DNA of 64,000 nt from Candidatus Micrarchaeota archaeon (GTDB taxonomy: Archaea > Micrarchaeota > Micrarchaeia > Anstonellales > Bilamarchaeaceae): positions 27,561 to 91,560 of the forward strand of contig JACRGB010000003.1 in NCBI GenBank assembly GCA_016212505.1, read 5' to 3'. How positions within the stretch are numbered: the stretch's first letter is position 1; the number at the start of each line of letters is the position of its first letter. The position numbers and the translations under genes were made by a program. Under the pieces are notes generated by a model that saw only the letters and a list, made by a program, of their open reading frames with translations, made no database searches and was not told the origin of the DNA. Below, piece by piece: positions 25,302 through 40,690 of this stretch.

Positions 25302-25877
25302 TTAATTTTTGGCCTTTTTAATTTTCTTCAGAAGAGCATGAAACTTTTCCGCATTAAGGTAGGTGCACCCGATCTCAGATGCAAATTTCAGCACCCCTTC
25401 ATCTGAAGAAATAAGTGTTGCATCAAGCTCTTTTGTAAGCAGGACCAATTCCACATCTTCCTTGGAATCTATTATTCCGGTGCGCATCGCATCACGGTAT
25501 TTTTCCCGGAGCTTCCCCAATTTTATATCATTATCCGGATGGTTATCTTTTGCAAATTCTTCAGCAAGGCGCATGCCCTTATTTATCCGGGTGCGGATAT
25601 CATCAATAAAATCATAAAGGACTGCTGCCGGAAGGTAAATCGAATACATATTAGGCGCGCGCTTCTTGATGTGTAGCTCGAGTTCATCAGTTGTTTTCTT
25701 TTCAATAAAATTTTTCATTTCGTTAAATACCGAAGGCGGGATAAAAAGCTCAATGTTCATTTTTGCGATTATCTTGAGGAATGCCTTAACTGCCGCAGTA
25801 GGACTCTTGCCAAAATGACCCCGGGCATGGGGATTGACAAACAAGGACGTATCGATAACAAAAACTCGGTTGGGCAT
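25302..25877 (-). CDS. RNA-free RNase P (HARP; PIN_5 'RNA ligase partner')
   Basis: FVIDTS, RINKGMRLAE, LREKYRDAMRTGIIDSKED, SDEG. Start reassigned to MPNR. Confidence 0.9.
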   Translation of the reverse strand: MPNRVFVIDTSLFVNPHARGHFGKSPTAAVKAFLKIIAKMNIELFIPPSVFNEMKNFIEKKTTDELELHIKKRAPNMYSIYLPAAVLYDFIDDIRTRINKGMRLAEEFAKDNHPDNDIKLGKLREKYRDAMRTGIIDSKEDVELVLLTKELDATLISSDEGVLKFASEIGCTYLNAEKFHALLKKIKKAKN

Positions 25878-25960
25878 ATGTAATAGCATAAAAAGACGTG
25901 GAATAAAAAGGTTTGCTAGGGAAAAGATATTTGGACATAAAAACATAAGGAAGGAATCAA

Positions 25961-26500
25961 ATGAAAAAAGAAGAACGGGTAGTACGAGTTCAGATCCGAC
26001 CAACTGATTCCGAACAAAAACCAGCACTGGGAAAAAGAAGAGCTCCCATGAACAGCAGTGTAACGATAACGGCAACTGAAGTAATTGAGAGATTGAAAGC
26101 AACTGCAAGTGGCTGGGATCACATCGTAGCTAACATGATCGGACTTATCAGGTTAGAAAAAGAAGAAGTAAAACTTTTCGTAAAGGAAGGAGAAAAAACC
26201 AAAATTTATTCTCTCGATGATGATGATCAGATGTTTGGGATTCTTCAGGCGCTTTCACTGGGAAGCTCATTGCCAAAAAGCCTTCCAAAATTTGCAATTG
26301 CAGTTGTAGAAGAAACAACCAACATATATTTTGTATTGGTATCGATAAATGAGAGGAGAAAAATCATAGTAAAGGCACTACTTTCTAGTTACATGGATCG
26401 AAATGAGAGTGAGTGGAGAGAGGTATTTGTTGCAATAAGGGCAGCTGAGCAGGAGTATCTCATGCCAGGAAATAGGGGCAACCTTGTCATTTCAACTTAA
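25961..26500 (+). CDS. Hypothetical protein convergent with the giant kinase-tailed protein
   Basis: 179-aa ORF with an AGGAAGGA RBS-like sequence; no motif recognised. Confidence 0.65.
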   Translation: MKKEERVVRVQIRPTDSEQKPALGKRRAPMNSSVTITATEVIERLKATASGWDHIVANMIGLIRLEKEEVKLFVKEGEKTKIYSLDDDDQMFGILQALSLGSSLPKSLPKFAIAVVEETTNIYFVLVSINERRKIIVKALLSSYMDRNESEWREVFVAIRAAEQEYLMPGNRGNLVIST

Positions 26501-26515
26501 TAAAAATAGTTAAAA

Positions 26516-29500
26516 CTATCTAGATGCACGCAATGCTTTTTCCGCCATAGCTTGGGCATCAGGGAGAATATCAGCCCAGATATTTTGGAAACCGTCTTTG
26601 CCACCTATAGTAAGCAAGTGACTGAATATATCCGTTGCTTCAGGTGCATCAAACACGACACGACCATGCCGATCAGCCATAACATAATCACGCTGACCAT
26701 TTATCGGCATACCGACCATCACCTGCGGAGGGTCTCCCTTTTGGCCGCCCGCATAGTATGCTTCAATTTCTTTTATCGCAGTTGGGGAAAGTGATTGCCC
26801 AGCTCCAACCATCTGGCCATCATTTTTAGCAAAAGCAGTCACCAGGTTGCGTTCAAAATCAGGGGTACTCCCAACTTCAGTATGCCATTTTTTAGCCCCC
26901 TCTTTTATGGAATGGGTTGCTGATTGGGCCACTTCAGAAACGGGGCGGCCAGACAAACGCGCAAGGCTTATAAAAACTGGAGCTAAATCTTTTGAATATT
27001 GGGGGATTAGGTGTTCTTTGGAGGAATAAAGTTCATATCCCCCTCGTGTATTTTTAGTTACCCGAAAATGGCCTGCGGCATCAGTATCTATCCGCCCGAT
27101 TTTGAATATTGCAGACTCTCCCCTAACATCTACAACAGTATAACCTTCACTCTTAAGTAATGCAACCTTTGAAGGAGGCACTTTCAGCAACATACCCTGA
27201 AGGTTTCCAGAATGATTATCCCAGGAACCTCCCATCATGAGTCCAGTGCATGCATAACCAATTTCCTGATGAACTACCTCGGGATGTTCTTTATAAAATT
27301 TGGTTAATTCGGTATTGCCTTTCATTCTAGATAAACTAGCTGCTTCCATAGTTGAAGTTTGAATTGGTTCACCCCCAAGGTTGAGAGTACCGCTAAAGTA
27401 TTTGATATGGTCTATCAAACCCCATTTAACCGCCCCACCCTCCGGAGAGGAGAACGTAAGCGGTTTACTATTTGATTCGCTAACCACTCCGGCAGTTGGA
27501 ACATTTGCTATTTGCCCGGTTTTTGCCCCGAAAGCAGCAGGCCGTAAATCCTCGGCTTTTGCAATAAATGCTCGCTCTTCACCCGAAGGGGCAACTACTT
27601 TTATCTCGTACGCTCCAACCATACCATCATGGCCGATTATCCGAGTAATTTTACTGCCTTCTGGAACTTTGGCAAGGACAGTTTCAGAAAGATTACCGGA
27701 TAATAAAAGAGATCCGATTGTAGAAACCTGCTGATGATAGTTACCCGACCTAGGATCAAAAGAATGAGAGTAGAGTCCTTTTTTCTCTAAATAAGAGCTT
27801 ACATCAGCCACAGCCGCTTCATTGCTCTTTGCATTAAGATAGACATTTTTTAATTCACCTGAAGATAAGCCAAGTGCTTTCTCAGATGCAGGCACTCCCT
27901 TAAGGTTTTCCAAATAAGTTGCAGCCGAGTGTTCTCCGGCAAGAGTTAGAGTTCTGATGCTTTGTTCTTGTTGGGCAGGAGGAGCTGCTAAAAATGACTC
28001 TGCGGATTTTGTGCGTTCTGTGACGGCTGGGGATCTTAATGATGCTCCTAATTTCTGTGCCTCTGAACGCTCTGCGCCAGTGAGTTCGTGCTGCTGCGCA
28101 CGAGGTTCAGCTGGAGTTTCTAATGCCCGAGGCAATTCTTGCACCGGAACTGCACGTTCTTGAGCCGGAGAATGCCCCGTGGCTTTATTAAGTTCAACAA
28201 CCTTTGGCGCAGTCGTCAAGGAGGTGCGTTTCTTTATTTCACTATCAAGACCATTTGCAGCCTTTTCTAATGCAACTGCCAAAAGAGGATTTGTTTTTTG
28301 ACCGCTTTCTTTAGGGGGATTACGCCAGAACTTTGCTTCATCTCGCAAAGAGCCGGCACGCTCGGATAGCTCCCCAACTTCGATTTTAGGGTTATCAATC
28401 AAACGTTGGGTCTGGAGCTTTGCCGTAGCCTCAAGGGTCACGGAGTCATTCTGCAACTGGGGAATATGCCCTTCATATATGGCCAAACCCGCTTCGTTTA
28501 ATGCGAGATTAAATTCTTGGTTTTGCCTTGGAAGTCTTTCGGTTCCGGAAACGTGTTCCCGATAAGATCTGGCGAGATTGCCTGCAGCACGGGCAGTCCG
28601 TTCTGCTTCTCCCACACCCATGCCCGAATTGATCAAACGATCCTTAAGTTCGGAAAATGCACTTTTCTCTGCGAATTTATGTGCCTCTGCTGCGACCTGT
28701 TCTTGAGGAAGAGGTTTTGCGGATTGGTCAGAGGGATGCGCCAATTCGAATTCCGCAGCTCGCCTAACCGTTTCAAATTTTTCATTAATTGCTCTAGCGT
28801 GAACATCAAGTGCACTTGCAAGTTTTACCTGCTGCTCCCGCACAGGTATTGCTTCTGCGCCTTTTCCTAGGGTATAGACAGTACCTTCTGGAGAAACGGA
28901 ACTATCTGAAAATCGCGACCGAAATCTTGTTTCATTACGAGTAAATTCAAAGTTAGGAGTTTTGAATCCATCAAAAAGTGAGACGGGTTGGCTGCTGGTT
29001 TTTTCCTGAGCCACTAAAACATCCGCACTTTGACGCAATTGCTTTGCGTCAGCAGTAAGTTGTGCAGCCCGATCTTCGAGTACTTGCGCCCCTGCAGAAT
29101 CCCCCTGGCGGTTCAATCTTCGCATTTCTGTTAATGCGTCTGTTGCTTGGGCAGTAATATGATCTGCCTGAGCAAGCAATTGTTGCGAACTTGGAACTTC
29201 TGCTTGATGGGCCATAGGCCGTACTGGAGCTGCTGACCTATTCGTCCGTTCAACTGCCAAACGCCTGGAGATGGCTCTGGAAAAATTAATTCCAAATCGG
29301 CCAACTGCACCAACATCAATACCAGCATTTGCATAAACTGGGGTCCGGTCTACGGCCTCGACAAAAGCAGCCCCAAAAACTCTAGCCCCGAATTTTACTT
29401 TATCAAAACCCTTACTCGCTGCTGATTTAGTTTTGTCTTTAGCAATCCGTGCTGCTTCTCCGGCGGTTTCTGCAGCTACGGCCATTCTTCCAACAACCCG

Positions 29501-32137
29501 CTCAGGCATAGCAACTTGAACATTAGGCCCAGTAGTGACTTTTGGGGCAGATTTTCTAGAGTTAACCGTAATTTCTCCGGAAACAACATCTCCTGCATTA
29601 ACTCCTTGAGGCATCCGGCTAGCCATAGAGTTTGGAATTTTACTTTGAGGCAGTTTCAAGGTTGGAATTTCGAAAGTTGATCCGAAGGCAGCAGTGCGCA
29701 CTTTACTGGAAAAACCTTCAATAACAAATGAGCTGGTCCTCCTATAAGAGGATTTAGCCAGATTAAAAGCACTTTTACGTGAATGCCACAAGGGCAGTGC
29801 ATTATAGAGCAAATCAGCCCCGCCACTTGCCCAGTCACCTTGACGGATCTGACTATACGCGCTACCAACTCCTTCTACAGAAAAACCGAGATTGATACCC
29901 GTTTCTGCCACCCTAAATGCCACGCCGGCATGGCCTAAATTAAACGCATTTGCAGATCCTTTGAGAAGCGGGTTAAATCTAAGCCCAACTACGCTAGTGA
30001 TAAGCATGAGTTGGGTTTTCCACGAAACATCCCCGGTAAAGTATTGCTCCCGAGCAGCGCCCCGGAATGCACTTGCAACACCAAAAAATTGGCCGATAAC
30101 CGGAATAAATGCAACTAGCCTCTCGGCCCATTCATTCAACTTATCTGCAACGTGCATTTTATGTTTTAGTTCATCAAATCGGATTTGAAGCTCTTCCCCG
30201 GCCTGATCAGCAAGTGCCTGAGCACGGTAATTCTGCTTAACTCCGCTATAATATCCTATCAGCTTTTTTGATTGGGCAACAATGGCATCTTGGAGCTTGC
30301 CTTCACCAACTGCAAAAACACGGGAACTTGAGGTGCACACGGAAGCTTCAAAGCGGGCCATAACTTCTGCAAGTTTCTGGTTGTTTTTATCAAAACCCTT
30401 CCCTTCCAGATGTTGATCAAGCAAATGCAACGAAGCATCCATAAAAAATCCAAAATTATTTCTCACAGGATCTATTTTCCCGCTCCTATCAAGAAGGGCA
30501 GCTGCAGAAGCATTGTATTGTTCACCCATCGAACGGGTATCTATCCGAAGCATATTCATTGCAGCGGCCTTAGCCCTAACCGCATCCGTGAATGATCGCC
30601 TGACGGTTTCAGACATTCCTCCAGAAAGATAGGAACTTAGGGCAGCATCATAGGATTTTCTCATAGTGTCAAGACTTTCCATACCGCGAAATTCTTTGGT
30701 TTCTTTCCAGTCGCCCTGACGAACTGCCTCGTAATATCCTGAAGCATTCCTGGTTTCATTCATCAAAAAGATCCCGGTAGAGACAAAAGCAACGGCTTCG
30801 TTTCTGGATTTATAAAATTCTGCAATTTTAGCACTGGCTGCAGATAAATCAGAAAGTTTTCCGCTTTTTTTTGCTTTTTCTATTTCACCCTTAAGTTTTG
30901 CAGATTCTGCCTCTACAGATTCTAATCGTGCAATGAATTTTGGGATTTCATACCGAAATGAGTCTCCAAACTGTGAATGTACGAATTTCTTTAGTTCATC
31001 AGTACTGGCCAATTCGCCCAATTGTTTTTCCTGTGCATTTACATATTCGAGTTGTTTTTTTGTTATGAACTCATTGGTTTTTTTATCAAACTCAGGAAGT
31101 AGTTTGTTTACCTTAGCAACATCTCTTTTTTCTATAGCCAATTTCACTTCATCAAGGGATTTTTGAAGCTCGGGGATTTCGCCGTAACTGGCAGATAGTT
31201 GCATATATGCTTCTCTGCGTTGTTCCAGAACAGATTTCGTCGTAGGAATTTTGCCGTCCTTATCTTTCTTGCCAGGCTGTGGCTGCGTAAGGCTAATACA
31301 ATATTTTGCATCCTCAAATTTTTTCATGCCATGTGCAAATGCAGCTTCTGCATTCTGAATATCGCCCTTAAGGTGTAATGAAACTGCTTCTTTTAGGTCG
31401 TCTAGGCCGTCTGATTTTTTTATGCCCTTAATATTTAGGGCATCTTCGTAACTCATAAGGCGGTCAAGTGCAGCATCTGCTTGGGCAAAGATTTGGTGTG
31501 CTGATTGTGGATTTTTTTCTTCTGGTGCAGAATCATAAAGTTTTTTGATTTGTAATGCAGCACTTTTGATGAAGGGGTCAGATGAGGCCAGAAGTTTTGG
31601 AACAGTGGAACGAAAATCACCGAGTGCTTTTGACTGCTCTACTTCATTAACACGGGAATTCATCTGCCCGATAAGTGCCCCTGCAGCGCCTCTTAGACTA
31701 TCATCAACCTTGTTTTGTTTAAACTGTAAAAGTAAATAATCAGTTTGGGACTTAAACTGCTCAAAAAGATTTACAGAGTGATCAGCTGGATCGATTTTGG
31801 CTTTCCCTAAGTCATTCATACGGGTAAGCAACTCCGCAAGTGCAAGGCAAACCTGCCCATTTGCATAACTAACATCGGTTAGGCCTTCTTTTTGAGCGCG
31901 GACAAAAAAAGCATTAGCCCGTTTGCCGAGTTCACTTACGCGCACATCGTCAGATCTCGCATACCCTCTTGCAGAAGCCCTTAATGCGTCAGGAGCACTG
32001 TTCAGCTTAACATCTTGAATATCTTTAATGGCAGTCTCTTGTGCACGGGCAGCAACTGCACCTAATACGGGGGCAAGTGCACTAACTTGTCTTGTCGGGT
32101 CATTTTCCTGAGGGTTGTAGAAGTGGGGCATAGGCAT
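26516..32137 (-). CDS. 1873-aa toxin/effector-like protein with C-terminal atypical (PI3/4K/HipA-like) kinase domain
   Basis: Helical N-terminus; central Gly/Ala hydrophobic helices; C-terminal GMVGAY..FIAK, GSWDNHSGN, GRIDTD. Confidence 0.6.
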   Translation of the reverse strand: MPMPHFYNPQENDPTRQVSALAPVLGAVAARAQETAIKDIQDVKLNSAPDALRASARGYARSDDVRVSELGKRANAFFVRAQKEGLTDVSYANGQVCLALAELLTRMNDLGKAKIDPADHSVNLFEQFKSQTDYLLLQFKQNKVDDSLRGAAGALIGQMNSRVNEVEQSKALGDFRSTVPKLLASSDPFIKSAALQIKKLYDSAPEEKNPQSAHQIFAQADAALDRLMSYEDALNIKGIKKSDGLDDLKEAVSLHLKGDIQNAEAAFAHGMKKFEDAKYCISLTQPQPGKKDKDGKIPTTKSVLEQRREAYMQLSASYGEIPELQKSLDEVKLAIEKRDVAKVNKLLPEFDKKTNEFITKKQLEYVNAQEKQLGELASTDELKKFVHSQFGDSFRYEIPKFIARLESVEAESAKLKGEIEKAKKSGKLSDLSAASAKIAEFYKSRNEAVAFVSTGIFLMNETRNASGYYEAVRQGDWKETKEFRGMESLDTMRKSYDAALSSYLSGGMSETVRRSFTDAVRAKAAAMNMLRIDTRSMGEQYNASAAALLDRSGKIDPVRNNFGFFMDASLHLLDQHLEGKGFDKNNQKLAEVMARFEASVCTSSSRVFAVGEGKLQDAIVAQSKKLIGYYSGVKQNYRAQALADQAGEELQIRFDELKHKMHVADKLNEWAERLVAFIPVIGQFFGVASAFRGAAREQYFTGDVSWKTQLMLITSVVGLRFNPLLKGSANAFNLGHAGVAFRVAETGINLGFSVEGVGSAYSQIRQGDWASGGADLLYNALPLWHSRKSAFNLAKSSYRRTSSFVIEGFSSKVRTAAFGSTFEIPTLKLPQSKIPNSMASRMPQGVNAGDVVSGEITVNSRKSAPKVTTGPNVQVAMPERVVGRMAVAAETAGEAARIAKDKTKSAASKGFDKVKFGARVFGAAFVEAVDRTPVYANAGIDVGAVGRFGINFSRAISRRLAVERTNRSAAPVRPMAHQAEVPSSQQLLAQADHITAQATDALTEMRRLNRQGDSAGAQVLEDRAAQLTADAKQLRQSADVLVAQEKTSSQPVSLFDGFKTPNFEFTRNETRFRSRFSDSSVSPEGTVYTLGKGAEAIPVREQQVKLASALDVHARAINEKFETVRRAAEFELAHPSDQSAKPLPQEQVAAEAHKFAEKSAFSELKDRLINSGMGVGEAERTARAAGNLARSYREHVSGTERLPRQNQEFNLALNEAGLAIYEGHIPQLQNDSVTLEATAKLQTQRLIDNPKIEVGELSERAGSLRDEAKFWRNPPKESGQKTNPLLAVALEKAANGLDSEIKKRTSLTTAPKVVELNKATGHSPAQERAVPVQELPRALETPAEPRAQQHELTGAERSEAQKLGASLRSPAVTERTKSAESFLAAPPAQQEQSIRTLTLAGEHSAATYLENLKGVPASEKALGLSSGELKNVYLNAKSNEAAVADVSSYLEKKGLYSHSFDPRSGNYHQQVSTIGSLLLSGNLSETVLAKVPEGSKITRIIGHDGMVGAYEIKVVAPSGEERAFIAKAEDLRPAAFGAKTGQIANVPTAGVVSESNSKPLTFSSPEGGAVKWGLIDHIKYFSGTLNLGGEPIQTSTMEAASLSRMKGNTELTKFYKEHPEVVHQEIGYACTGLMMGGSWDNHSGNLQGMLLKVPPSKVALLKSEGYTVVDVRGESAIFKIGRIDTDAAGHFRVTKNTRGGYELYSSKEHLIPQYSKDLAPVFISLARLSGRPVSEVAQSATHSIKEGAKKWHTEVGSTPDFERNLVTAFAKNDGQMVGAGQSLSPTAIKEIEAYYAGGQKGDPPQVMVGMPINGQRDYVMADRHGRVVFDAPEATDIFSHLLTIGGKDGFQNIWADILPDAQAMAEKALRASR

Positions 32138-32146
32138 TACCGATAA

Positions 32147-32422
32147 TCAGGGAGAAGGCAACTCACGACAGAGTTCATCCAAAACGCCAAGACTTTCTGA
32201 AATAAGTTCTAAATCAGTACTATTGCCATAAACATCTCTCCAGTATTCCAGTGCGCTTTTCCATTTTTCAAGCCGTACGAGTTCTTCAGGAGGAGTTTTG
32301 GACTTAAATTTAGGGTTATTTAGGTTTAATGCGATGGATATTGACTTAATACTTTTATCAACTCGGTAGATAGAATTACCGTAAAGTTTGAGCAATTCGG
32401 AATCTAAATTCTGATCTGCCAT
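32147..32422 (-). CDS. Small helical hypothetical protein directly upstream of the giant protein
   Basis: 91-aa ORF, 9-bp gap to the next ATG. Confidence 0.65.
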   Translation of the reverse strand: MADQNLDSELLKLYGNSIYRVDKSIKSISIALNLNNPKFKSKTPPEELVRLEKWKSALEYWRDVYGNSTDLELISESLGVLDELCRELPSP

Positions 32423-32495
32423 AATTGTGGTATCACAGAACGTAAATAAAAAACCACCTTATGAGTAGGACTCAATGGACCCATAATAAAAAGAC

Positions 32496-33596
32496 CTAGA
32501 TCAGTTTCACCAGTCCCCTTCCTATTTCCGGGATGTTTCCCCCAAATAAGTTCGCTGCGTTAAGGGTGAATGTCATAAATACCACCATTGCGATTAATGG
32601 GAAGAGGCAAATTGCTGAAAGCAGATGGAGGGCAAGATCCGAAAGATGGTAGGTCACCAATTCAGTAAGCTGGCCATAGTTTGCTCTTAATCGGACTACG
32701 GATTCGCTTAAGCTGCCGACGCTGGGGCTCTGGCAGGCATAAGTTGAAAGATCATCTGGAACAGATGGAAGCATGCAGTCGTATTTGAACGAGCTTTCAA
32801 GGGGCGCGGGATTTGGGTTTGCAACAAGCAGAGAGGTCTGCACATGGGGAAGCGACATAGTTGCCACTAGGATATAAGTAAGGGGAAATACGAAATATAT
32901 GCCTACTGAAATTGCCATCATAAATGCGCCGGCACCGCGCACTGGGGGAAAGGCACGGAGTGCAACCCCAACAGAAAAGAAGAAACCAGCATAATATTTG
33001 ATGAAGGTGAAGGTATGGACAATAAGATAATACATGTACATGTAAAATGACATTGATTTTGTTGCGGTTGCAATTCTTTCTGAAAGCCATTTTATACCAA
33101 ATCCCGAGGCCACTTCGGACATGAAAATTTCCATATAAACAGATGAAATGGCCTCCACAGGGATGCTGAGGCCATAAAGGACTTTCATAAAACCGCTAAC
33201 GCATCTTGCCGGGGTTTCCATATAAAGGATCATCCAGTCGATGAGCGTGTTTTGGCTAAATACCACGCCATTCCAGGGAAAATCGTTCGAGTTGAGCTGG
33301 AAGGTAGAAAGATAAAGTGACTTTGCAACAGAACTGTGGAGTCCTGGCAGGGGCGCTCCTTGGGCAAGCAGGGGTTCGCCAACCTGGGCAAGCGCGGCCA
33401 CCATAATCACAATAAGCACGGTGGATACTGCATAAACAAATTCCGTTTTCGCTGTCTGCTCGAGGTTACGTAGGGAAAAGAGCCGGGAAAACATAATCAG
33501 CATGGCAGCAACTACTACTGATAGTGATGCTGCGGCAACCGCAAGCAATTCCCAGCCTGCATAGAAAGACGAACAGAAAAAAGTTGTACAAACCAT
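32496..33596 (-). CDS. CedA/VirB6-like polytopic membrane protein, paralog 6
   Basis: GVALRAFPPVRGAGAFMMAI..YFVFP; C-terminal FGGNIPEIGRGLVKLI. Confidence 0.65.
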   Translation of the reverse strand: MVCTTFFCSSFYAGWELLAVAAASLSVVVAAMLIMFSRLFSLRNLEQTAKTEFVYAVSTVLIVIMVAALAQVGEPLLAQGAPLPGLHSSVAKSLYLSTFQLNSNDFPWNGVVFSQNTLIDWMILYMETPARCVSGFMKVLYGLSIPVEAISSVYMEIFMSEVASGFGIKWLSERIATATKSMSFYMYMYYLIVHTFTFIKYYAGFFFSVGVALRAFPPVRGAGAFMMAISVGIYFVFPLTYILVATMSLPHVQTSLLVANPNPAPLESSFKYDCMLPSVPDDLSTYACQSPSVGSLSESVVRLRANYGQLTELVTYHLSDLALHLLSAICLFPLIAMVVFMTFTLNAANLFGGNIPEIGRGLVKLI

Positions 33597-34847
33597 CTAG
33601 ATCATCCTCGTTAATGAACTTATATCTACTTCTTCGCCGAAAATTGCGCTGAACCTCCTTGCAGCTTCAATAAACACAAGGACATTTAGGGCAGGGGCAA
33701 GAAACGCGAATAAAAATGCAAGTGCTACCACGGAAATTGGGATCATTATAATTATTGTAAATGTATCCCCAACAATGGACTGGAGGATGGAGCCAACTCC
33801 GCCATAAGTACCGCTTACAATGTCAGTAATGCCTCCATTGCCAAAACCTTTGGAGAAAAAATCGCTTGCATGCTTCATGAAACCGCCCGGGGTCAGGTCG
33901 CTAAAGAAATTGCGGAGGAAATCTGTCCAGTTAACTAAAGGATTCCCAAGACCGCTTAACATGACACTAAAGGTAAGGACGGTAAGGAGGGGAAATACAA
34001 GGAGGAATGCTGCGGAAATCCCAATCAGGGTCCCTCCAACCCTCCGGGTCGGGGTAAAGCAGCGGAGGAAAATACCTGCTGGCAGATAATAGTGAAGGAA
34101 TGCCTGTAATGAAAATAGGTAAACAAATAGCTGCGCATACATTATGATATATGCAACAGATAATGCAACCGACATATTATACAGCAGTTGTTTTATAGGG
34201 GAGAAAAATCCTGCAAAGGGAGTTGCTACAAGCCCAACGCCAAGAGGCCGGGCATAGGGAGTAACCGAAGCGAACTGGTCTACAATCACATTTAGCAGGT
34301 AGCTCATATCCAGCCAACTGCCGACATAGTATCCACCAAGTTCAAAAAATGCCCCTGCGACCTTATATACTGAATCTCCGGCCACAACACCAGTAAAACC
34401 AGAACCTAGTGGAGTTGCTTTTGGGAAAAAGTCTTCTGGAAGGGAGGATCCCATATCAATATTTGCAAGGACAGCAATTGAGCCCAAAATGATAACTGCA
34501 AGAAAACCGGAAATGACAAGTTCGAGAAGTTCCTGCTTTACGAAATTTATGACCATCTGGTTCCTTAGCAGGGTACCAAAAATATAAAATAATGCAAGAA
34601 GCACTGCTGAAACCATTAAAGCTAAACCCGATGGGGCAACCCAGTCCCACATGCCGGCAAACTGGGTGGAAACTATTGAATCAGCATCAAGCTTGAACAT
34701 TCCTGCAGTTCCCTGCGGGGGGGAGGGGTTTTGGAAAGGCGGGGCCTGCACACAGCCCGAGCTGATAAGAAATAGGAAAATGGCGGCGAGGAGGATGAAT
34801 ATTTTGGTTTTTTTGTTGCCGATCATACGCATAGTAAATCTCCCCAT
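33597..34847 (-). CDS. CedA/VirB6-like polytopic membrane protein, paralog 5
   Basis: PAGIFLRCFTPTRRVGGTLIGI..LVFP; C-terminal FGEEVDISSLTRMI. Confidence 0.65.
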   Translation of the reverse strand: MGRFTMRMIGNKKTKIFILLAAIFLFLISSGCVQAPPFQNPSPPQGTAGMFKLDADSIVSTQFAGMWDWVAPSGLALMVSAVLLALFYIFGTLLRNQMVINFVKQELLELVISGFLAVIILGSIAVLANIDMGSSLPEDFFPKATPLGSGFTGVVAGDSVYKVAGAFFELGGYYVGSWLDMSYLLNVIVDQFASVTPYARPLGVGLVATPFAGFFSPIKQLLYNMSVALSVAYIIMYAQLFVYLFSLQAFLHYYLPAGIFLRCFTPTRRVGGTLIGISAAFLLVFPLLTVLTFSVMLSGLGNPLVNWTDFLRNFFSDLTPGGFMKHASDFFSKGFGNGGITDIVSGTYGGVGSILQSIVGDTFTIIIMIPISVVALAFLFAFLAPALNVLVFIEAARRFSAIFGEEVDISSLTRMI

Positions 34848-36110
34848 TCATATAAGTTTTAAGAACCCAAAGAAATTAACATTAACTCCGAAGAACTTTG
34901 CAGTTTCCTTTGCTGCAGTAAGGGTAACGAAAATATTAAAGAACGGCAGCAGTACGGCCATCATGACGATATAGTATACGGACCCCCGCACAAGCTCAAA
35001 GGCCAGTGAAACTATCCCTCCCATGAAGAATGGCACCAGCACGCCGCTCGTAAGCAGCATTGAAATAACCGCAGTCCCAAAGACATTGAAGATCCCGCTG
35101 TTGGTAATGAAGCTGTTTATTGCTTTTTGGGCATCGATGATATTTCCACGCATTAGCTTGTGGACCTCATAGTCAATCAGGAACATGAACGGGTAAACGA
35201 GCGCGAGCGAAAATGCAATTGCGATCAAGGCTTCGCCTGCATTCCGCGTAAAAGGTATTGCACGAAGAAGGATGCCTAGCGGAATGAATAAGCTCCATGT
35301 CCACTTTTTGATTATGCATAGGGTGACAAGGTGGAGCAGCCATTCGCTAATGCCAAGGGAAAGGAACTGCAACGACGTACCGATAACATCAATAAGGGGC
35401 TTGAGTATGGGACCCATGTTAAACGAATACATTGCACGCCAGGTAACGCCAAACCACATTGTAGATGAATAGATCGTATGGACTACGGTGTTGTAAAGAA
35501 GGAGCATGCTGTAGTCGGTTGACATTTCGGTTATCATAACCCGGGTGAACTGTAGCGCGGCATCCATCATATTTGAATTGAAACGTGGATTGCCATAAAT
35601 AGGGTCGGCACTTGCATTCCCTGCACTAAATGAAAACCATAGCCCGCCCATGCCAATTGCCACAAGGATGACCATCACCCTGCGGATGGTGATTGTGGTC
35701 TGGTAAAGCTCATCTTTTGCAAGTGCGATTAATGAGGGCGAACTGAGAAGCTGGCCGAGCATATAAAATGCAGCGATTCCAAAAAAAACTACAAAAAGTG
35801 CAAGAATTGTAGGTGCAATCCAAAGTACATTTACAGTATCAGGAGAAATTGCAGGATTCGGGTTGGGGTTTTGGACTGAGAGGAAAGGATCATCGCAAGA
35901 GCTTCCCTTAAGGGTGTCAAAGAGGCTGTTGATGCCTACTGCGGCAGCTCCGGCGGGTGCCACTGCAGTATTTTTTATGTCATCCCAGCCCTTGTTCATA
36001 TTGTCGACGAATTTTTGGAATGCAGTGCTCCCAGCATTTTGGTCTGGCGGGTCGGCAAATAGGATGGAGGTGGAGAAGATCAGGATCAGGAATATGGGTA
36101 GCACCTTCAT
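34848..36110 (-). CDS. CedA/VirB6-like polytopic membrane protein, paralog 4
   Basis: PLGILLRAIPFTRNAGEALIAI..LVYP; C-terminal FFGVNVNFFGFLKLI. Confidence 0.65.
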   Translation of the reverse strand: MKVLPIFLILIFSTSILFADPPDQNAGSTAFQKFVDNMNKGWDDIKNTAVAPAGAAAVGINSLFDTLKGSSCDDPFLSVQNPNPNPAISPDTVNVLWIAPTILALFVVFFGIAAFYMLGQLLSSPSLIALAKDELYQTTITIRRVMVILVAIGMGGLWFSFSAGNASADPIYGNPRFNSNMMDAALQFTRVMITEMSTDYSMLLLYNTVVHTIYSSTMWFGVTWRAMYSFNMGPILKPLIDVIGTSLQFLSLGISEWLLHLVTLCIIKKWTWSLFIPLGILLRAIPFTRNAGEALIAIAFSLALVYPFMFLIDYEVHKLMRGNIIDAQKAINSFITNSGIFNVFGTAVISMLLTSGVLVPFFMGGIVSLAFELVRGSVYYIVMMAVLLPFFNIFVTLTAAKETAKFFGVNVNFFGFLKLI

Positions 36111-36111
36111 A

Positions 36112-37611
36112 TCAAATCAGCCTCGTAAGTCCTGCTATTTCTATATCCCCGCCAAAGGTCATGGAAAGCGAACGTATTGCGGCAATAGTGGAAATTATTG
36201 CAAGCAATGAAAAGAACATTGACCAGAAACTAAGCCTTGCAAGGATATCGAGCGGGCCATTTGGTTCCCAGGAAAAATTAATCCAGCTATCTTGCTTGCT
36301 CGCTTGGGAGAGTTGGCCGAACCAGCTATCCCGGTCGGTAGGATCGAACGCTTTTTCTGCCGCGGCAAGCGCTTTCTGCTGTTCTGCAACTACTGCCGGA
36401 TCCTTGCTGGCAGGATCATCACCTGGGCCTGCATTGAATCTGGGAATTAACTTATTGGTGGCTGGATCATTTTTTTCGATAGTTTCAAGATAGGCCAAAT
36501 CATAGGGATTGACCCCTTCCTTGGCAACACCCGAATACCCTTGTATATTTGCAAGAGTCTGCTGAGCACCCCGGGTGTCGAGCTTATTGCCCCCTCCTAT
36601 TACAGGTACAAAACCCAGTATATACATGGTGTTTGCAATTGGAGGGTCGGGATTGAGTTTGCCAAGAGGATTGGCTTTTACATTTAGGGGAGAAACCCAA
36701 TCATCACGGACATTATCCTTGAGCTGGATCATTACCAGCCCGGCAAAAGCATAGAAGGTCGGATAGATGAAATAGAGGGCAATTGCAATTGCAAGCATAA
36801 GGCCACCAAGGCGCCGGGTAAATGTGAATGTACGCAGAAGGGTCCCGGCAACAAAGAACGAAGGGAATATGGCAAGTGCGATAAAGCGCAGGAAAATTTC
36901 CTGCATCTTAGTGATCATAAGGATTTTCATGGCCCATTCAAATGCCAGAGATTTGACATTATTGCCCATTGTGAAGAATCCCCTCCAGGGGTTGAATGTG
37001 ATGAACCCGGTTTTTTCAAAAATAGTTTCAAAGTTTATAGTAAATTCTGCGGCCATAGAAGTCCAGATATAGTCGATATAGGTATTGAATGCAAAAGTAC
37101 TAGTTTCATCAAACACTTCCCGCAGGTGCCAGATGCCCATACGTACAGAACAGGAGGAAATGCCATTGTAAACAGAATATTGGTTTTCAGCAATATCGTC
37201 CCCGCATATGTCTATACACGCATAGTCACGTATGCCATTGTTTACCAGCGGGATCTGACCTGCACGAAATTGTTGGACGTAAGTTGTAGTTGCAGTAGTT
37301 GCGCCAGGGCAGAGGGTCCCAGGAGAAGGTTGGGGATTATTTCCGATACCCTGGTGCGGCATCAGGAGAATAGCCCCATGCACAACACCATCAACAAGCG
37401 GAAGGCTGGTTATTGCAAAAGAAAGGATTATCGCTGAATAAAATAATTCTGCTAGTTCCATTTTGGCCCATGCCTTTATTTTATCGTTCATGAGCATGCT
37501 GCCGATCATATACACTCCGCCAATTAGGCAAGTAACTATTCCGAATGCAATTCCGGCAAAAGCGAGCCAGTCGCCCCAGAACAATTTTATAGTTGTAAAT
37601 ACATCGACCAT
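36112..37611 (-). CDS. CedA/VirB6-like polytopic membrane protein, paralog 3
   Basis: AGTLLRTFTFTRRLGGLMLAI..YFIYP; C-terminal FGGDIEIAGLTRLI. Confidence 0.65.
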   Translation of the reverse strand: MVDVFTTIKLFWGDWLAFAGIAFGIVTCLIGGVYMIGSMLMNDKIKAWAKMELAELFYSAIILSFAITSLPLVDGVVHGAILLMPHQGIGNNPQPSPGTLCPGATTATTTYVQQFRAGQIPLVNNGIRDYACIDICGDDIAENQYSVYNGISSCSVRMGIWHLREVFDETSTFAFNTYIDYIWTSMAAEFTINFETIFEKTGFITFNPWRGFFTMGNNVKSLAFEWAMKILMITKMQEIFLRFIALAIFPSFFVAGTLLRTFTFTRRLGGLMLAIAIALYFIYPTFYAFAGLVMIQLKDNVRDDWVSPLNVKANPLGKLNPDPPIANTMYILGFVPVIGGGNKLDTRGAQQTLANIQGYSGVAKEGVNPYDLAYLETIEKNDPATNKLIPRFNAGPGDDPASKDPAVVAEQQKALAAAEKAFDPTDRDSWFGQLSQASKQDSWINFSWEPNGPLDILARLSFWSMFFSLLAIISTIAAIRSLSMTFGGDIEIAGLTRLI

Positions 37612-37652
37612 ATTGCATCCTCAGAGGTTTACTCATAAATTCTTCAAAATAC

Positions 37653-39416
37653 CTACATTTTCATCAGTATAAATTTCGTCATCGCATTTATGAATGCTAT
37701 AGTGACCATAATTGAGAGTGCGGGCATAAATAATGATAGAAGGGTAAGTACCGCAAAGTGCCGCATGATTATTGTAAATTCCGGCATGGGCAGGAGCCCC
37801 AGTACCCCTTCTGAGAAAAAATTACCCAGTGACTTTTGCACCGCAGTCCCTTTGGGAAGGTATTCGAATATTTTCCCCGGTGCAGTAGCGGGATTAAAGA
37901 AATAGCCAAATGCACCGTATTTTACCGGCCCGCATATTGAGTAAATTAAGGTGTTGGGGCTTTGGTATCCCGAAGGCCCAAGGTCCTCATACGCTTTCTT
38001 ATCGATCAGATAACCCATCGGAAAAACAATTTGGAAGCCTAATGCAAATGCCATAAGGAATGCACCTGCATCGCGGGTGGGCGGGAAAAAGTGCAGGATA
38101 AGCCCCGCAGGGAGGAAAAAATTACCCATAGTAGAATCTATGAAATAGAGAAGGCTGATTTGCGCAGATAAGCTGCCATAAACAGCTACGAGCCCATAGG
38201 AAAGGACATTGGAAATAGAAACAAAAGTATCGATTCCAGGAAAAACCTTATAGGTACGGGTAAGCACGGATTCTCCGATCCTTCTTGCATAAACGCTGAG
38301 CATGGAAGTGCAGGACTGTATCGAGTAAACATCATATATGCCGTTTAGTACTGGATCAAGTGCCTTCTCTTGCAGGAAATTTATTGCGGCAAGGGAAGGC
38401 GAGTTGGTATGGTAAGCATCATTTGCCCAAGCTGAAACGATCTGGCTGCCTACAACGAAAAGTCCTGCCACAAAGAGGACAAGAAGGAATGAGCGGAAAA
38501 GGTTGGAAAGTTCGACATTGAGGTAGCCCTCCCATTCAGGAACCCGGAAAACTTTTGAAACTATATAAGTCAGGAAAATTATCAGGGAAACAAAAAAGAA
38601 TACGTTGATCATCAGGTCAGCGTAGGGAGAAATGGATGCGGCAGTGCCTATTTTTGTCTGAAGTATCGAATCAAATGCGCCACCTTTAGCTAAAAAGACC
38701 TTGAATACGACGAAATAGACTATTGCTACAATAAAAGTACTTGCAAGGAGATTATTCGCAAATCCGGTTGCCCTGGCCCGGGTTTCTGCGCCAAACATCA
38801 TCCCGGCAGCATAGAAAACCGCTGCAAGAATAGCAAAGACGATTGTCAGGAATGCAAGTGAATTTTCGGATATGGTTTTTAGGTCGCTGAAGATTTTTAA
38901 GAAATCGACGGATGATGGCTCGCCACCGGCATTAAGGCTGGGCTGGATGATCGAGAGGAGGAAGAACATTATGATTATTACTAACGCCGAAACACCAACC
39001 GCAGTAAGCATGCTTTCAGTCCAGGTAGATGCTTTTGCTCTTAAGTCTGCACCAAACATCTGGCCAATAACATAAACTGAAGCCGCTATTACGATCATGG
39101 TGATTAGGAGAATCCCCATGACAGAAAGGGCAAAGGGAAGTAGGGAATTAGGGGAACTGTTAAGGGCGGATAAGGGATCAATTGGTGGATTGGCGGCAAA
39201 TGAAAATGAGGGCAGGAGTAGCGATAGAAATAGCACAAGCAGGAAGAGCGAGAAAGGAGTTTTTATGTTTTTTATTATATTGGAATTTGCAAATTCCAAT
39301 GCGTGGAGAAATTCTTTGGAATTTCTCCTGTAGCGAACCGTGTTCGCTACGGACAAATTTTTGCGAAAATTTGTCCTTGTAGTCTTCGTGAAGTCCATTA
39401 ATAGCACCCTTTTCAT
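37653..39416 (-). CDS. CedA/VirB6-like protein, paralog 2, with two N-terminal VirB2/TrbC pilin-like repeats
   Basis: Repeats AASVYVIGQMFGADLRAKA and AAVFYAAGMMFGAETRARA; core PAGLILHFFPPTRDAGAFLMA. Confidence 0.6.
   Translation of the reverse strand: MKRVLLMDFTKTTRTNFRKNLSVANTVRYRRNSKEFLHALEFANSNIIKNIKTPFSLFLLVLFLSLLLPSFSFAANPPIDPLSALNSSPNSLLPFALSVMGILLITMIVIAASVYVIGQMFGADLRAKASTWTESMLTAVGVSALVIIIMFFLLSIIQPSLNAGGEPSSVDFLKIFSDLKTISENSLAFLTIVFAILAAVFYAAGMMFGAETRARATGFANNLLASTFIVAIVYFVVFKVFLAKGGAFDSILQTKIGTAASISPYADLMINVFFFVSLIIFLTYIVSKVFRVPEWEGYLNVELSNLFRSFLLVLFVAGLFVVGSQIVSAWANDAYHTNSPSLAAINFLQEKALDPVLNGIYDVYSIQSCTSMLSVYARRIGESVLTRTYKVFPGIDTFVSISNVLSYGLVAVYGSLSAQISLLYFIDSTMGNFFLPAGLILHFFPPTRDAGAFLMAFALGFQIVFPMGYLIDKKAYEDLGPSGYQSPNTLIYSICGPVKYGAFGYFFNPATAPGKIFEYLPKGTAVQKSLGNFFSEGVLGLLPMPEFTIIMRHFAVLTLLSLFMPALSIMVTIAFINAMTKFILMKM
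39279..39376. repeat. Mini-palindrome array IV (4 units), in-frame in the 5' end of the 587-aa gene
   Basis: ATTGGAATTT-GC-AAATTCCAAT; GGAGAAATTC-TTTG-GAATTTCTCC; GTAGCGAAC-CGT-GTTCGCTAC; GGACAAATTT-TTGCGA-AAATTTGTCC. Confidence 0.85.
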
Positions 39417-40690
39417 ACCACTTTTGTTAAACCGACCAATTCAGCTTCACCGCCAATTAGCATAGAAATGCTGCGGTACATTGTCACGGTGATTATTATT
39501 TCCAGGACAGTGGTGAGTATCACAAGCACAATAAATGGTGAAATGGTCCCAACTTCGTTCAATATGAAGTAATAGAGCCCGGCTGAAGAACTCGTAGGAA
39601 GGAAAGTTGATTTGGACCCAAAGAGGCTGGGGTAAAAATCGCCGGTTGTGCCTACCATAAAGAGCCAGATATTTCTTACAGTTGCAGCCAAAGATCCTCC
39701 TGTATTCCAGGCTGCACGAGCCATATTTTTGAGACTGCAAAGCAGACCAGTAACCCCATCACATCCGAGAGTTGGGGTTTTTGTTGCATCTGCAAGCTTG
39801 TCTGCTTCTTGAAATTCCTTGGTGATCGCATCGGTCCTACTCCCCTCCCTCCATTCAGTTATGAGTTTGGTCCAATAACCCTCATCATGATGAGTTGCAA
39901 GGTAAGATGGAGTTTGCGGGGTGTAAACAAAATCCGCTGGTTTGTACATGGAAAAAATCAGATAATGTGAAAAAATTGTGGCAAAGGGAAGGACAAAATA
40001 CATTGCAAAACAAATTGCGAGGATGCTTGAACCTGTGGTCCGGTAAAAGGGAAATGCACGGAGGATGAGGCCAAAGGGAAGGATAATTAATGGGATTGCG
40101 TCTTTAGTGAAAATGAGTATAAATTCCTTGGCCATTAAAACAGTAACAAGATAACTGATAGTCTCTACGATTATGGTGTGGGCATCACTAAGAAGGGTTA
40201 GTCCGGTAAATGGTGCAAATGAAAATGAGATAATGGCTACTGAGGGTATGGGCGAGCTGACCGGGAAACTGACTGTGGAAAGGAAACCTATCAGGGCTTC
40301 AAAAAGATAAAGGTCAATATACTGGGAGAAAAGCTTTTCTTTTAGGATAGTTAACACGCCAAGGGCAAGGTTGATATGTGCAGAGGTATAAACCTGATTT
40401 GGGTTTGCATTATTTATTACCCCACCAAGCCCTGAAGTACTTGATTGCAGCGCACCCTGGACCAGGGCATTTAAGGTGGTATCGAGGCTAAGCCAAAAGA
40501 AAATGATTACTGCAGAAAAAATTAAAGCAGCCAGTTCTTCCTTTGCAATAGCAGTAATTGAAGGGCTTTGTAAAAAATAAGCCACAAGAAATATTGAGCC
40601 GGTTAACCCCGTGGCAAAACCAAGGGAAACAAATATCATAGACCAGGCTGCTGGCGGTAAAGTTATTGCCAATAGCAGGGGAAGTAGCAT
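39413..40690 (-). CDS. CedA/VirB6-like polytopic membrane protein, paralog 1
   Basis: PFGLILRAFPFYRTTGSSILAI..YFVLP; C-terminal IGGEAELVGLTKVV. Confidence 0.65.
   Translation of the reverse strand: MLLPLLLAITLPPAAWSMIFVSLGFATGLTGSIFLVAYFLQSPSITAIAKEELAALIFSAVIIFFWLSLDTTLNALVQGALQSSTSGLGGVINNANPNQVYTSAHINLALGVLTILKEKLFSQYIDLYLFEALIGFLSTVSFPVSSPIPSVAIISFSFAPFTGLTLLSDAHTIIVETISYLVTVLMAKEFILIFTKDAIPLIILPFGLILRAFPFYRTTGSSILAICFAMYFVLPFATIFSHYLIFSMYKPADFVYTPQTPSYLATHHDEGYWTKLITEWREGSRTDAITKEFQEADKLADATKTPTLGCDGVTGLLCSLKNMARAAWNTGGSLAATVRNIWLFMVGTTGDFYPSLFGSKSTFLPTSSSAGLYYFILNEVGTISPFIVLVILTTVLEIIITVTMYRSISMLIGGEAELVGLTKVV

Follow-up and report, generated by a model that had tools for sequence, protein, structure and literature searches.

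A giant modular protein with a predicted PI3/4K-like kinase tip in a Micrarchaeota archaeon: a candidate exported toxin with a predicted cognate inhibitor

The window, a stretch of 64,000 nucleotides from a Candidatus Micrarchaeota archaeon analysed here at full length, carries on its reverse strand an array of six paralogous membrane-protein genes (32496..40690), a T-rich spacer of 73 nt (32423..32495), a 91-aa gene that we call U (32147..32422; helical by sequence pattern) and, 9 nt further on, an uninterrupted open reading frame for a giant modular protein of 1,873 aa (26516..32137). X, a 179-aa gene on the forward strand (25961..26500), converges on the giant, the two stop codons lying 15 nt apart. 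U, the giant co-oriented with it and the convergent X form a cassette whose order is conserved across relatives and which is found at differing chromosomal sites among them; the array is context outside this conserved unit. The two small genes that define the cassette had been missed by an earlier note on this DNA, which described the giant and the array. One public contig matches 24408-35000 with 0 differences and, possibly coming from the same source sample, serves as an assembly check only. To judge from its sequence, a terminator or TATA-like box may lie within the T-rich spacer; a sigma-70 promoter scan gave nothing informative. GC3 in the cassette (0.32-0.34) is below that of the array (0.40-0.53); as a sign of transfer this was dropped, the giant's GC3 ranking at the genome's 31st percentile. 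No family is assigned to the giant, U, X or the array by Pfam, NCBIfam or PHROGs (for the giant, no Pfam family, no PHROG for four segments and no credible NCBIfam match), and no earlier description of the cassette was found in the literature searched.

The C-terminal domain of the giant (aa 1455-1873; 26519..27775, reverse strand; subtype A) is predicted to be a PI3/4K-like atypical kinase with intact catalytic residues. Its AlphaFold model is confident (pLDDT 93.6, pTM 0.92), and the top Foldseek and VIA rows are PI3K, PI4K or PIKK enzymes with the two-lobe kinase fold. The best VIA match is PI4KIIIβ (Z 13.4, rmsd 5.6, 271 aligned), with VPS34 (12.1), PI4KIIα (12.0), actin-fragmin kinase (10.1), CtkA (9.9) and MavQ (8.3) behind it; Foldseek gives VPS34, DNA-PKcs, mTOR and PI4KIIIβ at E about 1e-4. 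Fold and motifs are what the domain shares with these enzymes, from which it differs in having 7-14% identity, an rmsd of 4-6 A and no sequence-level match in PDB or Pfam (at E up to 1 the kinase profile retrieved no PDB sequence). The fold bears out a kinase call that the earlier note had drawn from motifs. All six motifs named there are real and located at GMVGAY 1505, FIAK 1524, GSWDNHSGN 1637 and GRIDTD 1681 and, further upstream, AFIPVIG... 676 and GDWASGG... 767. By analogy with other kinases, GMVGAY (aa 1505-1510) would be the Gly-rich loop leading to an ATP-binding K1527 (27557..27625, reverse strand), and the stretch 27080..27229 on the same strand would hold the DxHxxN catalytic loop and a metal-binding motif. 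Of the proposed signature, GxxDRHxxN plus IDxG, the kinase assignment stands and the last element does not, the metal-binding motif here being IDxD. Across 41 aligned kinase domains D1640, N1645 and D1684 are invariant, D1686 is kept in 40 and K1527 in 38; H1642 occurs in 26, with F or R in most others. A comparison of 20 sequences found G1508 and K1527 in every one. The motif set is beyond chance, because the pattern DxHxxN...[IL]Dx[DG] is rare in the genome (4 of 3,409 ORFs, two of them the window giant and its paralog) and the residues are conserved in the 41 domains.

Affiliation within the kinases is less sharply drawn. HipA, HipT and LepB are not among the best 50 structural matches, which does not exclude membership, and Pfam and NCBIfam assign the domain to no Hip family. 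The nearest named Atlas clusters carry LepB_N (score 0.91, with 149 of 256 features in common), which is no more than a lead; an Atlas cluster with HipA_2 in 21% of its members also scored 0.91, and a search of a viral library returned generic kinases only.

Complex modeling predicts that X sits across the active site of this kinase. In the modeled complex ipSAE is 0.89, against 0.00 for the best of 3 controls; at least 78% of contacts recur between runs, the partner has pLDDT of at least 85, and X residues 118-121 contact D1684, N1645, I1683 and K1527. Of 157 solved pairs 116 attain the ipSAE mark, against 2 of 215 mismatched ones, counts that are a rough guide here, where our own alignments were used. 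None of 43 X members matches a Hip family, X has no Pfam match, and an Atlas search with X gave no usable match, which shows neither absence nor novelty.

Pairing between kinase and X is seen at several levels. The genome has just two X genes, each adjoining a kinase giant, and a kinase-less giant on C28 has no X beside it. Among relatives, X is present in all 22 that are kinase-positive, kinase and X counts per genome are correlated (rho 0.85 over 37 genomes that, being kin, are not independent), and five stand-alone kinase genes of ~800 aa have X beside them. Subtype counts of kinase and X are equal in 21 of 27 cassettes; where there is a single kinase, the nearest X is of the matching subtype in 14/14. 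At held-out loci the subtypes match in 13 of 17, the others comprising two with an ambiguous or mismatched X, one without X and one at a contig edge. The kinase-X Mantel rho is 0.62 over 17 pairs, and among the two-kinase cassettes, six in number, the values are 0.47 and 0.59 for cognate and 0.03 and -0.60 for non-cognate pairs. No subtype-B X was detected in cassette G002:C2, and the X tree has weak support (0.84/0.26) at its root split; like the four unmatched held-out loci, these were counted against the toxin-immunity reading developed below. With the predicted binding, this pairing provides an adjacent partner gene that varies with the putative toxin domain. X without a detected kinase occurs in 5 of 14 relatives, and 3 cassettes have extra X genes; such lone and extra copies resemble orphan immunity genes, and orphan X may also be a product of fragmented assemblies.

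Ahead of the kinase, the giant begins with a helical region (aa 1-640; 30218..32137, reverse strand) common to P0007, P0009 and P0045 at 21-26% identity. A partial model of aa 380-830 is all-helical, as the earlier note had expected of the N-terminal region, with mean pLDDT 70 and no specific fold match (the best Foldseek E was 0.15, and the best VIA Z, 9.1, is a non-specific value); nor does it match known pore-formers or translocators, which was counted against the toxin-immunity reading developed below. Hydropathy shows no signal peptide: within the first 45 aa no 12-mer exceeds 2.05, against 3.3 in a secreted control, again in line with that note. A leader profile shared by these proteins scores 43 of 57 others above 13 bits in leave-one-out; the window giant fits it poorly (1.2 bits), also counted against that reading. 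Next comes a Gly/Ala-rich hydrophobic segment (aa 643-805; 29723..30211, reverse strand), modest here (peak KD 1.62) and modeled with low confidence, which we infer to be a membrane-inserting or translocation module. Its profile matches 25 related giants with the consensus FxP...EYxxTGxVS; many of the largest giants are missed by this hairpin profile, yet contain hydrophobic stretches. A 60-aa stretch with mean KD >=0.5 occurs in 37 of 39 U-linked ORFs of >=1,000 aa, a count that has no background control. The FIP...TG of the segment looks by eye like the pre-toxin domain PT-TG; the PT-TG profile was unmatched, and Pfam, searched at E up to 1, places aa 640-800 in no family. The linker that follows (aa 806-1454; 27776..29722, reverse strand) has no Pfam family and, for most of its length, no detectable relatives, phmmer with aa 801-1400 giving no included match among the collected relatives.

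The likely role of U is that of a chaperone or co-export factor. Built from 50 relatives without the window copy, a profile ranks that copy third among the genome's own 3,409 ORFs (E 9e-5), and the two better-scoring ORFs lie ahead of the two further giants of this kind that the genome encodes. Fifty-eight of 60 U genes lie directly 5' of a co-oriented ORF of >150 aa, and searching turned up the gene in 44 of the family's 75 genomes and in 1 of the other 325. Neither HTH nor HipS was matched by U.

The kinase was found in 27 of 75 genomes of one Micrarchaeota family and in none of the phylum's 325 other genomes; those homologous records that carry a name belong to Micrarchaeota. A word-index search recovered P0002 alone, and a second such search, insensitive, found none among 169-846-aa proteins though such kinases exist. 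Relatives range from 0.7 to 8.6 thousand aa, with the hydrophobic segment common and the enzymes different or stacked: one to three kinases, HicA, phosphoesterase, nucleotidyltransferase and GGDEF, the PolyA_pol, Metallophos and GGDEF domains being above cut-off. Windowed Pfam scans (140 of 162 windows plus 48 further segments) left most without a family. The clearest exchange is between the giant of G004:C12 and P0002, which are 56% identical over aa 1-622 and share nothing beyond, the former differing in both its C-terminus and its partner gene. Together with the C-terminal tip of L082, which is HicA (31.6 bits against a cut-off of 27), this pair displays a carrier with interchangeable C-terminal domains, and it bears out the toxin- or effector-like modular design that had been suspected, homologs with the same N-terminus and a variable C-terminus having been found. 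Two candidates were set aside: the tip of P0002, HicA-like by eye, neither matches Pfam nor aligns with the L082 tip in BLASTP and was not counted, and Pfam scans did not confirm a GGDEF domain in a region common to P0002 and the C24 giant. The type of C-terminus goes with a particular family of partner genes, tail clusters pairing with F2 (4 tails), F4/F10 (6), F5 (3) and F11 (2). Synonymous sites approach saturation while the proteins stay conserved, which was counted for the toxin-immunity reading.

Several known systems invite comparison. Bacterial polymorphic toxins, as the relevant passages of Zhang et al. 2012 (PMC3482391) describe them, likewise have an N-terminal trafficking region, a central delivery segment and a variable C-terminal enzyme, whose adjacent partner gene varies along with it, and apparent orphan partners; the same passages call such systems scarce in archaea. 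The cassette differs in that its carrier, U, X and kinase profiles match no curated family, the partner is convergent, and enzymes are stacked in chains of up to 8,600 aa with an X for each kinase. The LXG toxins of T7SSb and their Lap proteins (PMC10765036) offer a gene of ~100 aa immediately 5' of a toxin that lacks a signal peptide and has a helical N-terminus, along with adjacent immunity genes in tandem non-identical copies. Here, however, there is one helper rather than two or three, immunity lies on the opposite strand, and the U consensus has a conserved W...KP in the turn, not WxG, Pfam finding no WXG100 or LXG domain in U or the giant's N-terminus at E up to 1. HipBST and HipA, in the portions of PMC10627512 and bioRxiv 10.1101/2021.04.14.439929 concerned, share the atypical kinase with its Gly loop, DxHxxN and metal-binding Asp, and a small protein that reaches, by prediction here, into the active site. 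In the cassette, by contrast, a giant carrier bears the kinase at its tip, X, a protein of ~180 aa, is encoded downstream in convergent orientation, and no HipB-like HTH gene, HipS match or hipB(S)-type operon lies upstream. Giant multi-enzyme chains recur in the Archaeovorins of Omnitrophota (bioRxiv 10.1101/2023.11.21.568195), a paper whose relevant passages mention neither Micrarchaeota or DPANN nor cognate inhibitor genes.

Kinase fold and residues, the predicted binding and pairing of X, the polymorphism of the tails and the apparent orphan X together support the reading that U, giant and X constitute an undescribed exported polymorphic toxin with its cognate immunity, likely aimed at neighbouring cells, kin included, which we regard as modestly probable. 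U would bind the giant's N-terminal leader and license export of a protein that lacks a signal peptide, as Lap does for LXG toxins; the hydrophobic segment would enter the target membrane and pass the C-terminal enzyme or enzymes inside; and X, as predicted and as the co-variation supports, would insert a beta-hairpin turn over the ATP/metal site and keep the producer safe. A broader proposal, plausible if somewhat short of probable, is that the family has a delivery system of its own, in which U and leader address giants and short proteases to an undescribed export machine and each toxic domain has a tail-to-tail antidote. Also counted against the toxin-immunity reading are the following: the convergent X departs from the co-transcribed immunity gene of classical operons, chains as long as 8,600 aa are difficult to export, and kinase, phosphoesterase and GGDEF cargo fits signalling or host manipulation too.

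An alternative that we think unlikely, and still deserving of attention, has the giant reprogram a host cell rather than competitors, with X silencing the kinase before export. MARTX toxins and Legionella effectors are analogies for delivery into a host, and the former are likewise giant chains with several enzyme domains; no RTX repeats or autoprocessing protease were noticed in the cassette giants. The stacking of kinases, calcineurin-like phosphoesterases, GGDEF and nucleotidyltransferase in one chain would suit such a role, as would the occurrence of U before HExxH protease-like proteins with the same leader, the lipid kinases among the best folds, the LepB_N clusters as nearest named Atlas neighbours, and the host association of Micrarchaeota in culture, as far as the source passages describe it. 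Fast swapping of tips with matching partners and the apparent orphan X are better suited to conflict among kin, however; HicA is a growth-arrest RNase family, and the lineage has no known host.

Rather improbable in our view is an intracellular module, a membrane-anchored kinase held by its inhibitor and never exported, acting in toxin-antitoxin, abortive infection or signalling. It would accommodate the missing signal peptide, the lack of linked secretion genes and the five ~800-aa kinase genes that have X and neither a hydrophobic peak nor an adjacent U, and passages of PMC10627512 show that HipBST kinase toxins are held by small active-site inhibitors. It leaves unexplained U, the shared leader and a long hydrophobic-segment carrier before interchangeable enzymes, and no HTH antitoxin gene was seen in the cassette.

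The earlier note had assigned delivery to the array, which does adjoin the giant in the same orientation, 73 nt from U. That the giant is dedicated cargo of this array now seems very improbable: an orthologous array is followed by the cassette in 0/20 relatives, 16 of which have kinase giants elsewhere, and in 18 of the 20 a PIN or RNA-ligase gene lies 3' of it (U, X or kinase in none). The array family occurs in 36/36 genomes, including 10/10 from genera where the kinase was not found, the kinase having been seen in a single family, and the two further giants of this kind in the genome are on contigs without an array match nearby. In its favour are a single array-family gene ~1.5 kb upstream of U, on the opposite strand, in G004:C12, and the presence of four TraG/VirB4-like ATPase matches (PF19044 and PF01935 searched); all four are on other contigs, and no export machine is linked to the cassette, which was counted against the toxin-immunity reading. 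Six array proteins have no Pfam or NCBIfam match and three no PHROG match, and the giant has no trafficking domain known to Pfam, PHROG or NCBIfam. The position of the cassette beside the array is incidental, and the array could serve as a general conduit. Hardly credible is a structural or surface protein, adhesin- or tape-measure-like with the kinase as passenger, which the long helical region, the hydrophobic helices and the giant surface proteins that passages of PMC10266531 report from other DPANN might suggest, and against which stand the lack of Ig-like or internal repeats, of a signal peptide by hydropathy and of a PHROG match, the invariant catalytic residues and the dedicated, co-varying predicted inhibitor.

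The small parts of the toxin-immunity proposal (a kinase domain of 420 aa, a predicted inhibitor of 179 aa and a helper of 91 aa) are testable without culture. The rule that tail type predicts partner family should allow mining of enzyme-inhibitor pairs from unannotated giants, and some 60 candidate cargo genes marked by U, through their co-distribution, could reveal the export machine. To our knowledge, how DPANN archaea act on hosts or rivals is largely open. If the proposal is true, X would be among a new class of active-site inhibitors for PI3K-like kinases, and the cassettes of this family would be the first polymorphic toxin arsenal, with a dedicated effector code, in DPANN archaea.

The giant is encoded by an intact open reading frame of 1,873 aa at 26516-32137 (-), on contig C29 of the 1.48-Mb source genome, and every motif quoted from it in the earlier note is present. 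The same note's call of a C-terminal kinase is borne out: with an AlphaFold model of the domain (41 aligned domains; pLDDT 93.6), PI3K/PI4K/PIKK enzymes come out on top in both Foldseek and VIA-align. Fold matches include PI4KIIIβ (Z 13.4, rmsd 5.6, 271 aligned), VPS34 (Z 12.1), PI4KIIα (Z 12.0), Bud32 (Z 10.9), CotH (Z 10.5), actin-fragmin kinase (Z 10.1) and CtkA (Z 9.9); D1640, N1645 and D1684 are invariant in the alignment, and K1527 is kept in 38/41 rows. On this model it is almost certain that the domain has a kinase fold, at a PI3/4K-like level that implies no assignment to HipA, CtkA or LepB.

Within the genus, 22/36 genomes have a match to the kinase profile, as against 0/24 from other genera of the order; in a phylum-wide draw, the counts are 27/75 within the family and 0/325 outside it. 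Carriers run from about 700 to 8,600 aa with 1-3 kinase domains each, and only 46 proteins, mostly >1,000 aa, were recovered from among 1.84 billion representatives. The C24 giant of the source genome (3,619 aa) ends in a paralog of the window giant's C-terminal ~500 residues (49% identity). The segment 24408-35000 is identical across its full span to one public contig, which may derive from the same sample; homologous cassettes also occur in two records of Candidatus Micrarchaeota. Complete cassettes (upstream gene U, giant, convergent gene X) stand in tandem in two relatives, three at G033:C2:118500-187200 and two on G018:C42, of 5,900-7,700 aa each, and at L093:3796-10100 (genome G109) a single TAG divides a kinase giant into 1,559 + 539 aa. 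Five orthologous stand-alone subtype-B kinase genes (~800 aa; loci L046, L047, L048, L049, L050) have a convergent X, no hydrophobic peak and no adjoining U.

The earlier note judged the kinase and the cargo-like design correctly and overlooked both partner genes. X (25961-26500, +) has its stop 15 nt from that of the giant. The 268-aa PIN ORF listed at 25302-26108 truly begins near 25877 and therefore does not overlap X; the two are divergent, with an 83-nt spacer. The source genome has exactly two X genes, each adjoining a kinase giant, and X is present in all 22 kinase-positive relatives and in 5/14 kinase-negative ones, counts that come from non-independent relatives and incomplete assemblies. 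A complex model of kinase aa 1462-1873 with X aa 25-179 reached a score of 0.89, whereas none of three controls exceeded 0.00, with contact agreement of at least 78% and partner pLDDT of at least 85 across runs; 116/157 solved and 2/215 mismatched pairs reach this mark, a rough calibration since the alignments were made for this analysis. Sequence searches of PDB and Pfam match neither chain, which makes recall of a solved complex an unlikely source of the score. The most confident contacts set X 118-121, where small residues form a hairpin turn, on D1684, I1683, N1645 and K1527, and the Gly loop also lies within the predicted interface. The model supports kinase-X binding, and X is very probably the cognate kinase inhibitor.

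Subtype pairing lends independent genomic support to X as the predicted inhibitor. Kinases divide into subtypes A and B with tree support of 1.0/0.78, and X proteins do so weakly (0.84/0.26). Kinase and X subtype counts agree exactly in 21/27 cassettes; the remainder are three with an extra X, two truncated where a contig or the fetched stretch ends, and one without a B-type X. The nearest X is of matching subtype in 14/14 single-kinase cassettes (seven of each subtype, with five of the B ones orthologous), and giants with A and B domains are usually accompanied by one A-type and one B-type X, for which species history alone is an insufficient explanation. Kinase and X distances correlate (rho 0.62, p 0.0005, 17 A pairs); in six two-kinase cassettes, a small sample, cognate pairs give 0.47 and 0.59 versus 0.03 and -0.60 for non-cognate ones. 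When profiles built from this first set were applied to 17 more loci, the pairing held in 13 and was ambiguous or mismatched in two; of the other two loci, one lacks X and one lies at a contig edge.

The cargo-like modular design proposed earlier has also held, in that a shared N-terminus occurs with different C-termini and partners. The G004:C12 giant, with a kinase tip and X partner, is 56% identical over residues 1-622 to the related giant P0002 and has no alignment with it beyond residue 622; P0002 has a different C-terminus and a different convergent gene, of 155 aa. In L082, a relative of P0002 has a HicA domain at its C-terminal end (31.6 bits against a cut-off of 27). Other giants match a poly(A)-polymerase/CCA head (58 bits), GGDEF (28.1 bits once, 21.2 once) and, weakly, M24 and methyltransferase domains; four of these other giants match calcineurin-like phosphoesterases (36-42 bits). 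When 40 hand-picked giants were clustered on their last 260 residues, ten tails stayed single and six multi-member groups formed, each with one partner type except that families F4 and F10 share a group: X (11 and 4 tails), F4/F10 (6), F2 (4), F5 (3) and F11 (2). The F2 tails probably cluster through a shared region preceding differing tips. In 32/43 cases a kinase giant is immediately followed by a convergent gene.

U (32147-32422) is recovered at E 9e-5 by a 50-sequence profile that excludes it, and at only E 0.02-0.04 by smaller earlier profiles. It is present in 44/75 family genomes versus 1/325 others, and a co-oriented ORF >150 aa directly follows it in 58/60 cases. U-linked ORFs share a weak N-terminal leader (43/57 >13 bits leave-one-out, in a partly redundant set), which the window giant fits poorly (1.2 bits). 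U also precedes 360-450-aa HExxH proteins with a second HEG motif (L124:1395-6018, L125, L126, L127, L129, L131), zincin-like with a weak SprT-like match (22.8 bits); up to three such pairs stand in tandem, their leader shared with the giants, and these proteases are candidates for further cargo. The sole U outside the family (L132:1171-4562, genome G158) lies before a gene for 1,043 aa, whose product combines a hydrophobic segment with a kinase-like region at the C-terminus (DxHxxQ...VDN) missed by the kinase profile. A third U and giant in the source genome (G000:C28:14598-23068, L044) encodes 2,700 aa with the hydrophobic segment shared by giants, no kinase and no X, and is convergent with a 1,922-aa gene; a GDSL-lipase gene comes next after its orthologs in G031 and G033. 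This locus may supply a structural or an export component of the system.

Twenty-five giants conserve a Gly/Ala-rich hydrophobic segment (aa 643-805 of the window giant), and 37/39 long U-linked ORFs have a hydrophobic stretch, a raw count without background comparison. Residues 380-830 model as all-helical, with low confidence over the hydrophobic segment, and a fold search with this model matched nothing specific. A 12-residue stretch >KD 2.0 near the start occurs in only 2/58 U-linked ORFs, the window's (2.05) among them. The U-giant layout recalls the upstream Lap helpers of LXG toxins, as described in PMC10765036, but the cassette has no WXG/LXG match. TraG/VirB4-like ATPase matches lie on four other contigs of the source genome. 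From this architecture we infer that the giant would be exported and cross a membrane.

With rivals, kin and host taken together, delivery into another cell is likely; by judgements that overlap slightly and were not computed, rivals or kin are favoured somewhat as the target, and the host is an unlikely one. Bacterial-looking genes in the source genome (C40:421-7074, C21:9888-13052, C3:49913-50830) may hint at bacterial partners; one product has 2,217 aa with OmpA and TPR domains, another gene has an AAA region that by eye resembles those of sigma-54 activators, and the third has repeats that we take to be like those of myxobacterial proteins. An intracellular toxin-antitoxin or signalling role is less likely than delivery into the host.

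The earlier note had the adjacent array deliver the kinase, and this claim fails. U, X and kinase are found downstream of the orthologous array in 0/20 relatives, 16 of which carry kinase giants elsewhere, and the array family occurs in 36/36 genomes (8-23 matches each), including 10/10 from other genera. In 18/20 the array is followed by the PIN or RNA-ligase gene that comes after the cassette in the window, so that insertion at this site is the best reading of the cassette. A partial counter-example is G004:C12, where a single array-family gene lies on the opposite strand ~1.5 kb upstream of U. A dedicated giant-array link is very improbable; the array could still act as a general conduit. 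Other large genes (C38:3-3665 homologs) are inserted after the array in G011, G018, G021, G033 and G034 (L071, L079, L073, L061, L063), which suggests an insertion hotspot. A recurring giant slot (G000:C24:21405-37108; also G002, G010, G013, G024, G031, G036, G175), with cargo differing by genome, adjoins a homolog of C24:21405-22478, whose product is presumably RNA 3'-phosphate cyclase-like. Fourteen array-family matches lie in the source genome (including window 32496-40690, C31:18149-26249 and C43:38361-39479), and the family has no name in Pfam, NCBIfam or PHROG; it merits separate fold work and study. That the giant itself is structural is, with its catalytic residues conserved, barely credible.

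Archaeal polymorphic toxins are reportedly the subject of a 2019 mBio survey, which could bear on novelty. Full-text literature searches turned up no description of such a system in Micrarchaeota. No occurrence of toxin, secretion, giant or effector came up in PMC12892359, and none of Micrarchaeota or DPANN in bioRxiv 2023.11.21.568195; PMC3482391, PMC10266531, PMC10627512 and bioRxiv 2021.04.14.439929 served for comparison. The cassette is a real, lineage-specific, modular toxin-immunity-like system whose families are named by no library, and it is best classed among polymorphic toxin systems, as a variant of its own.
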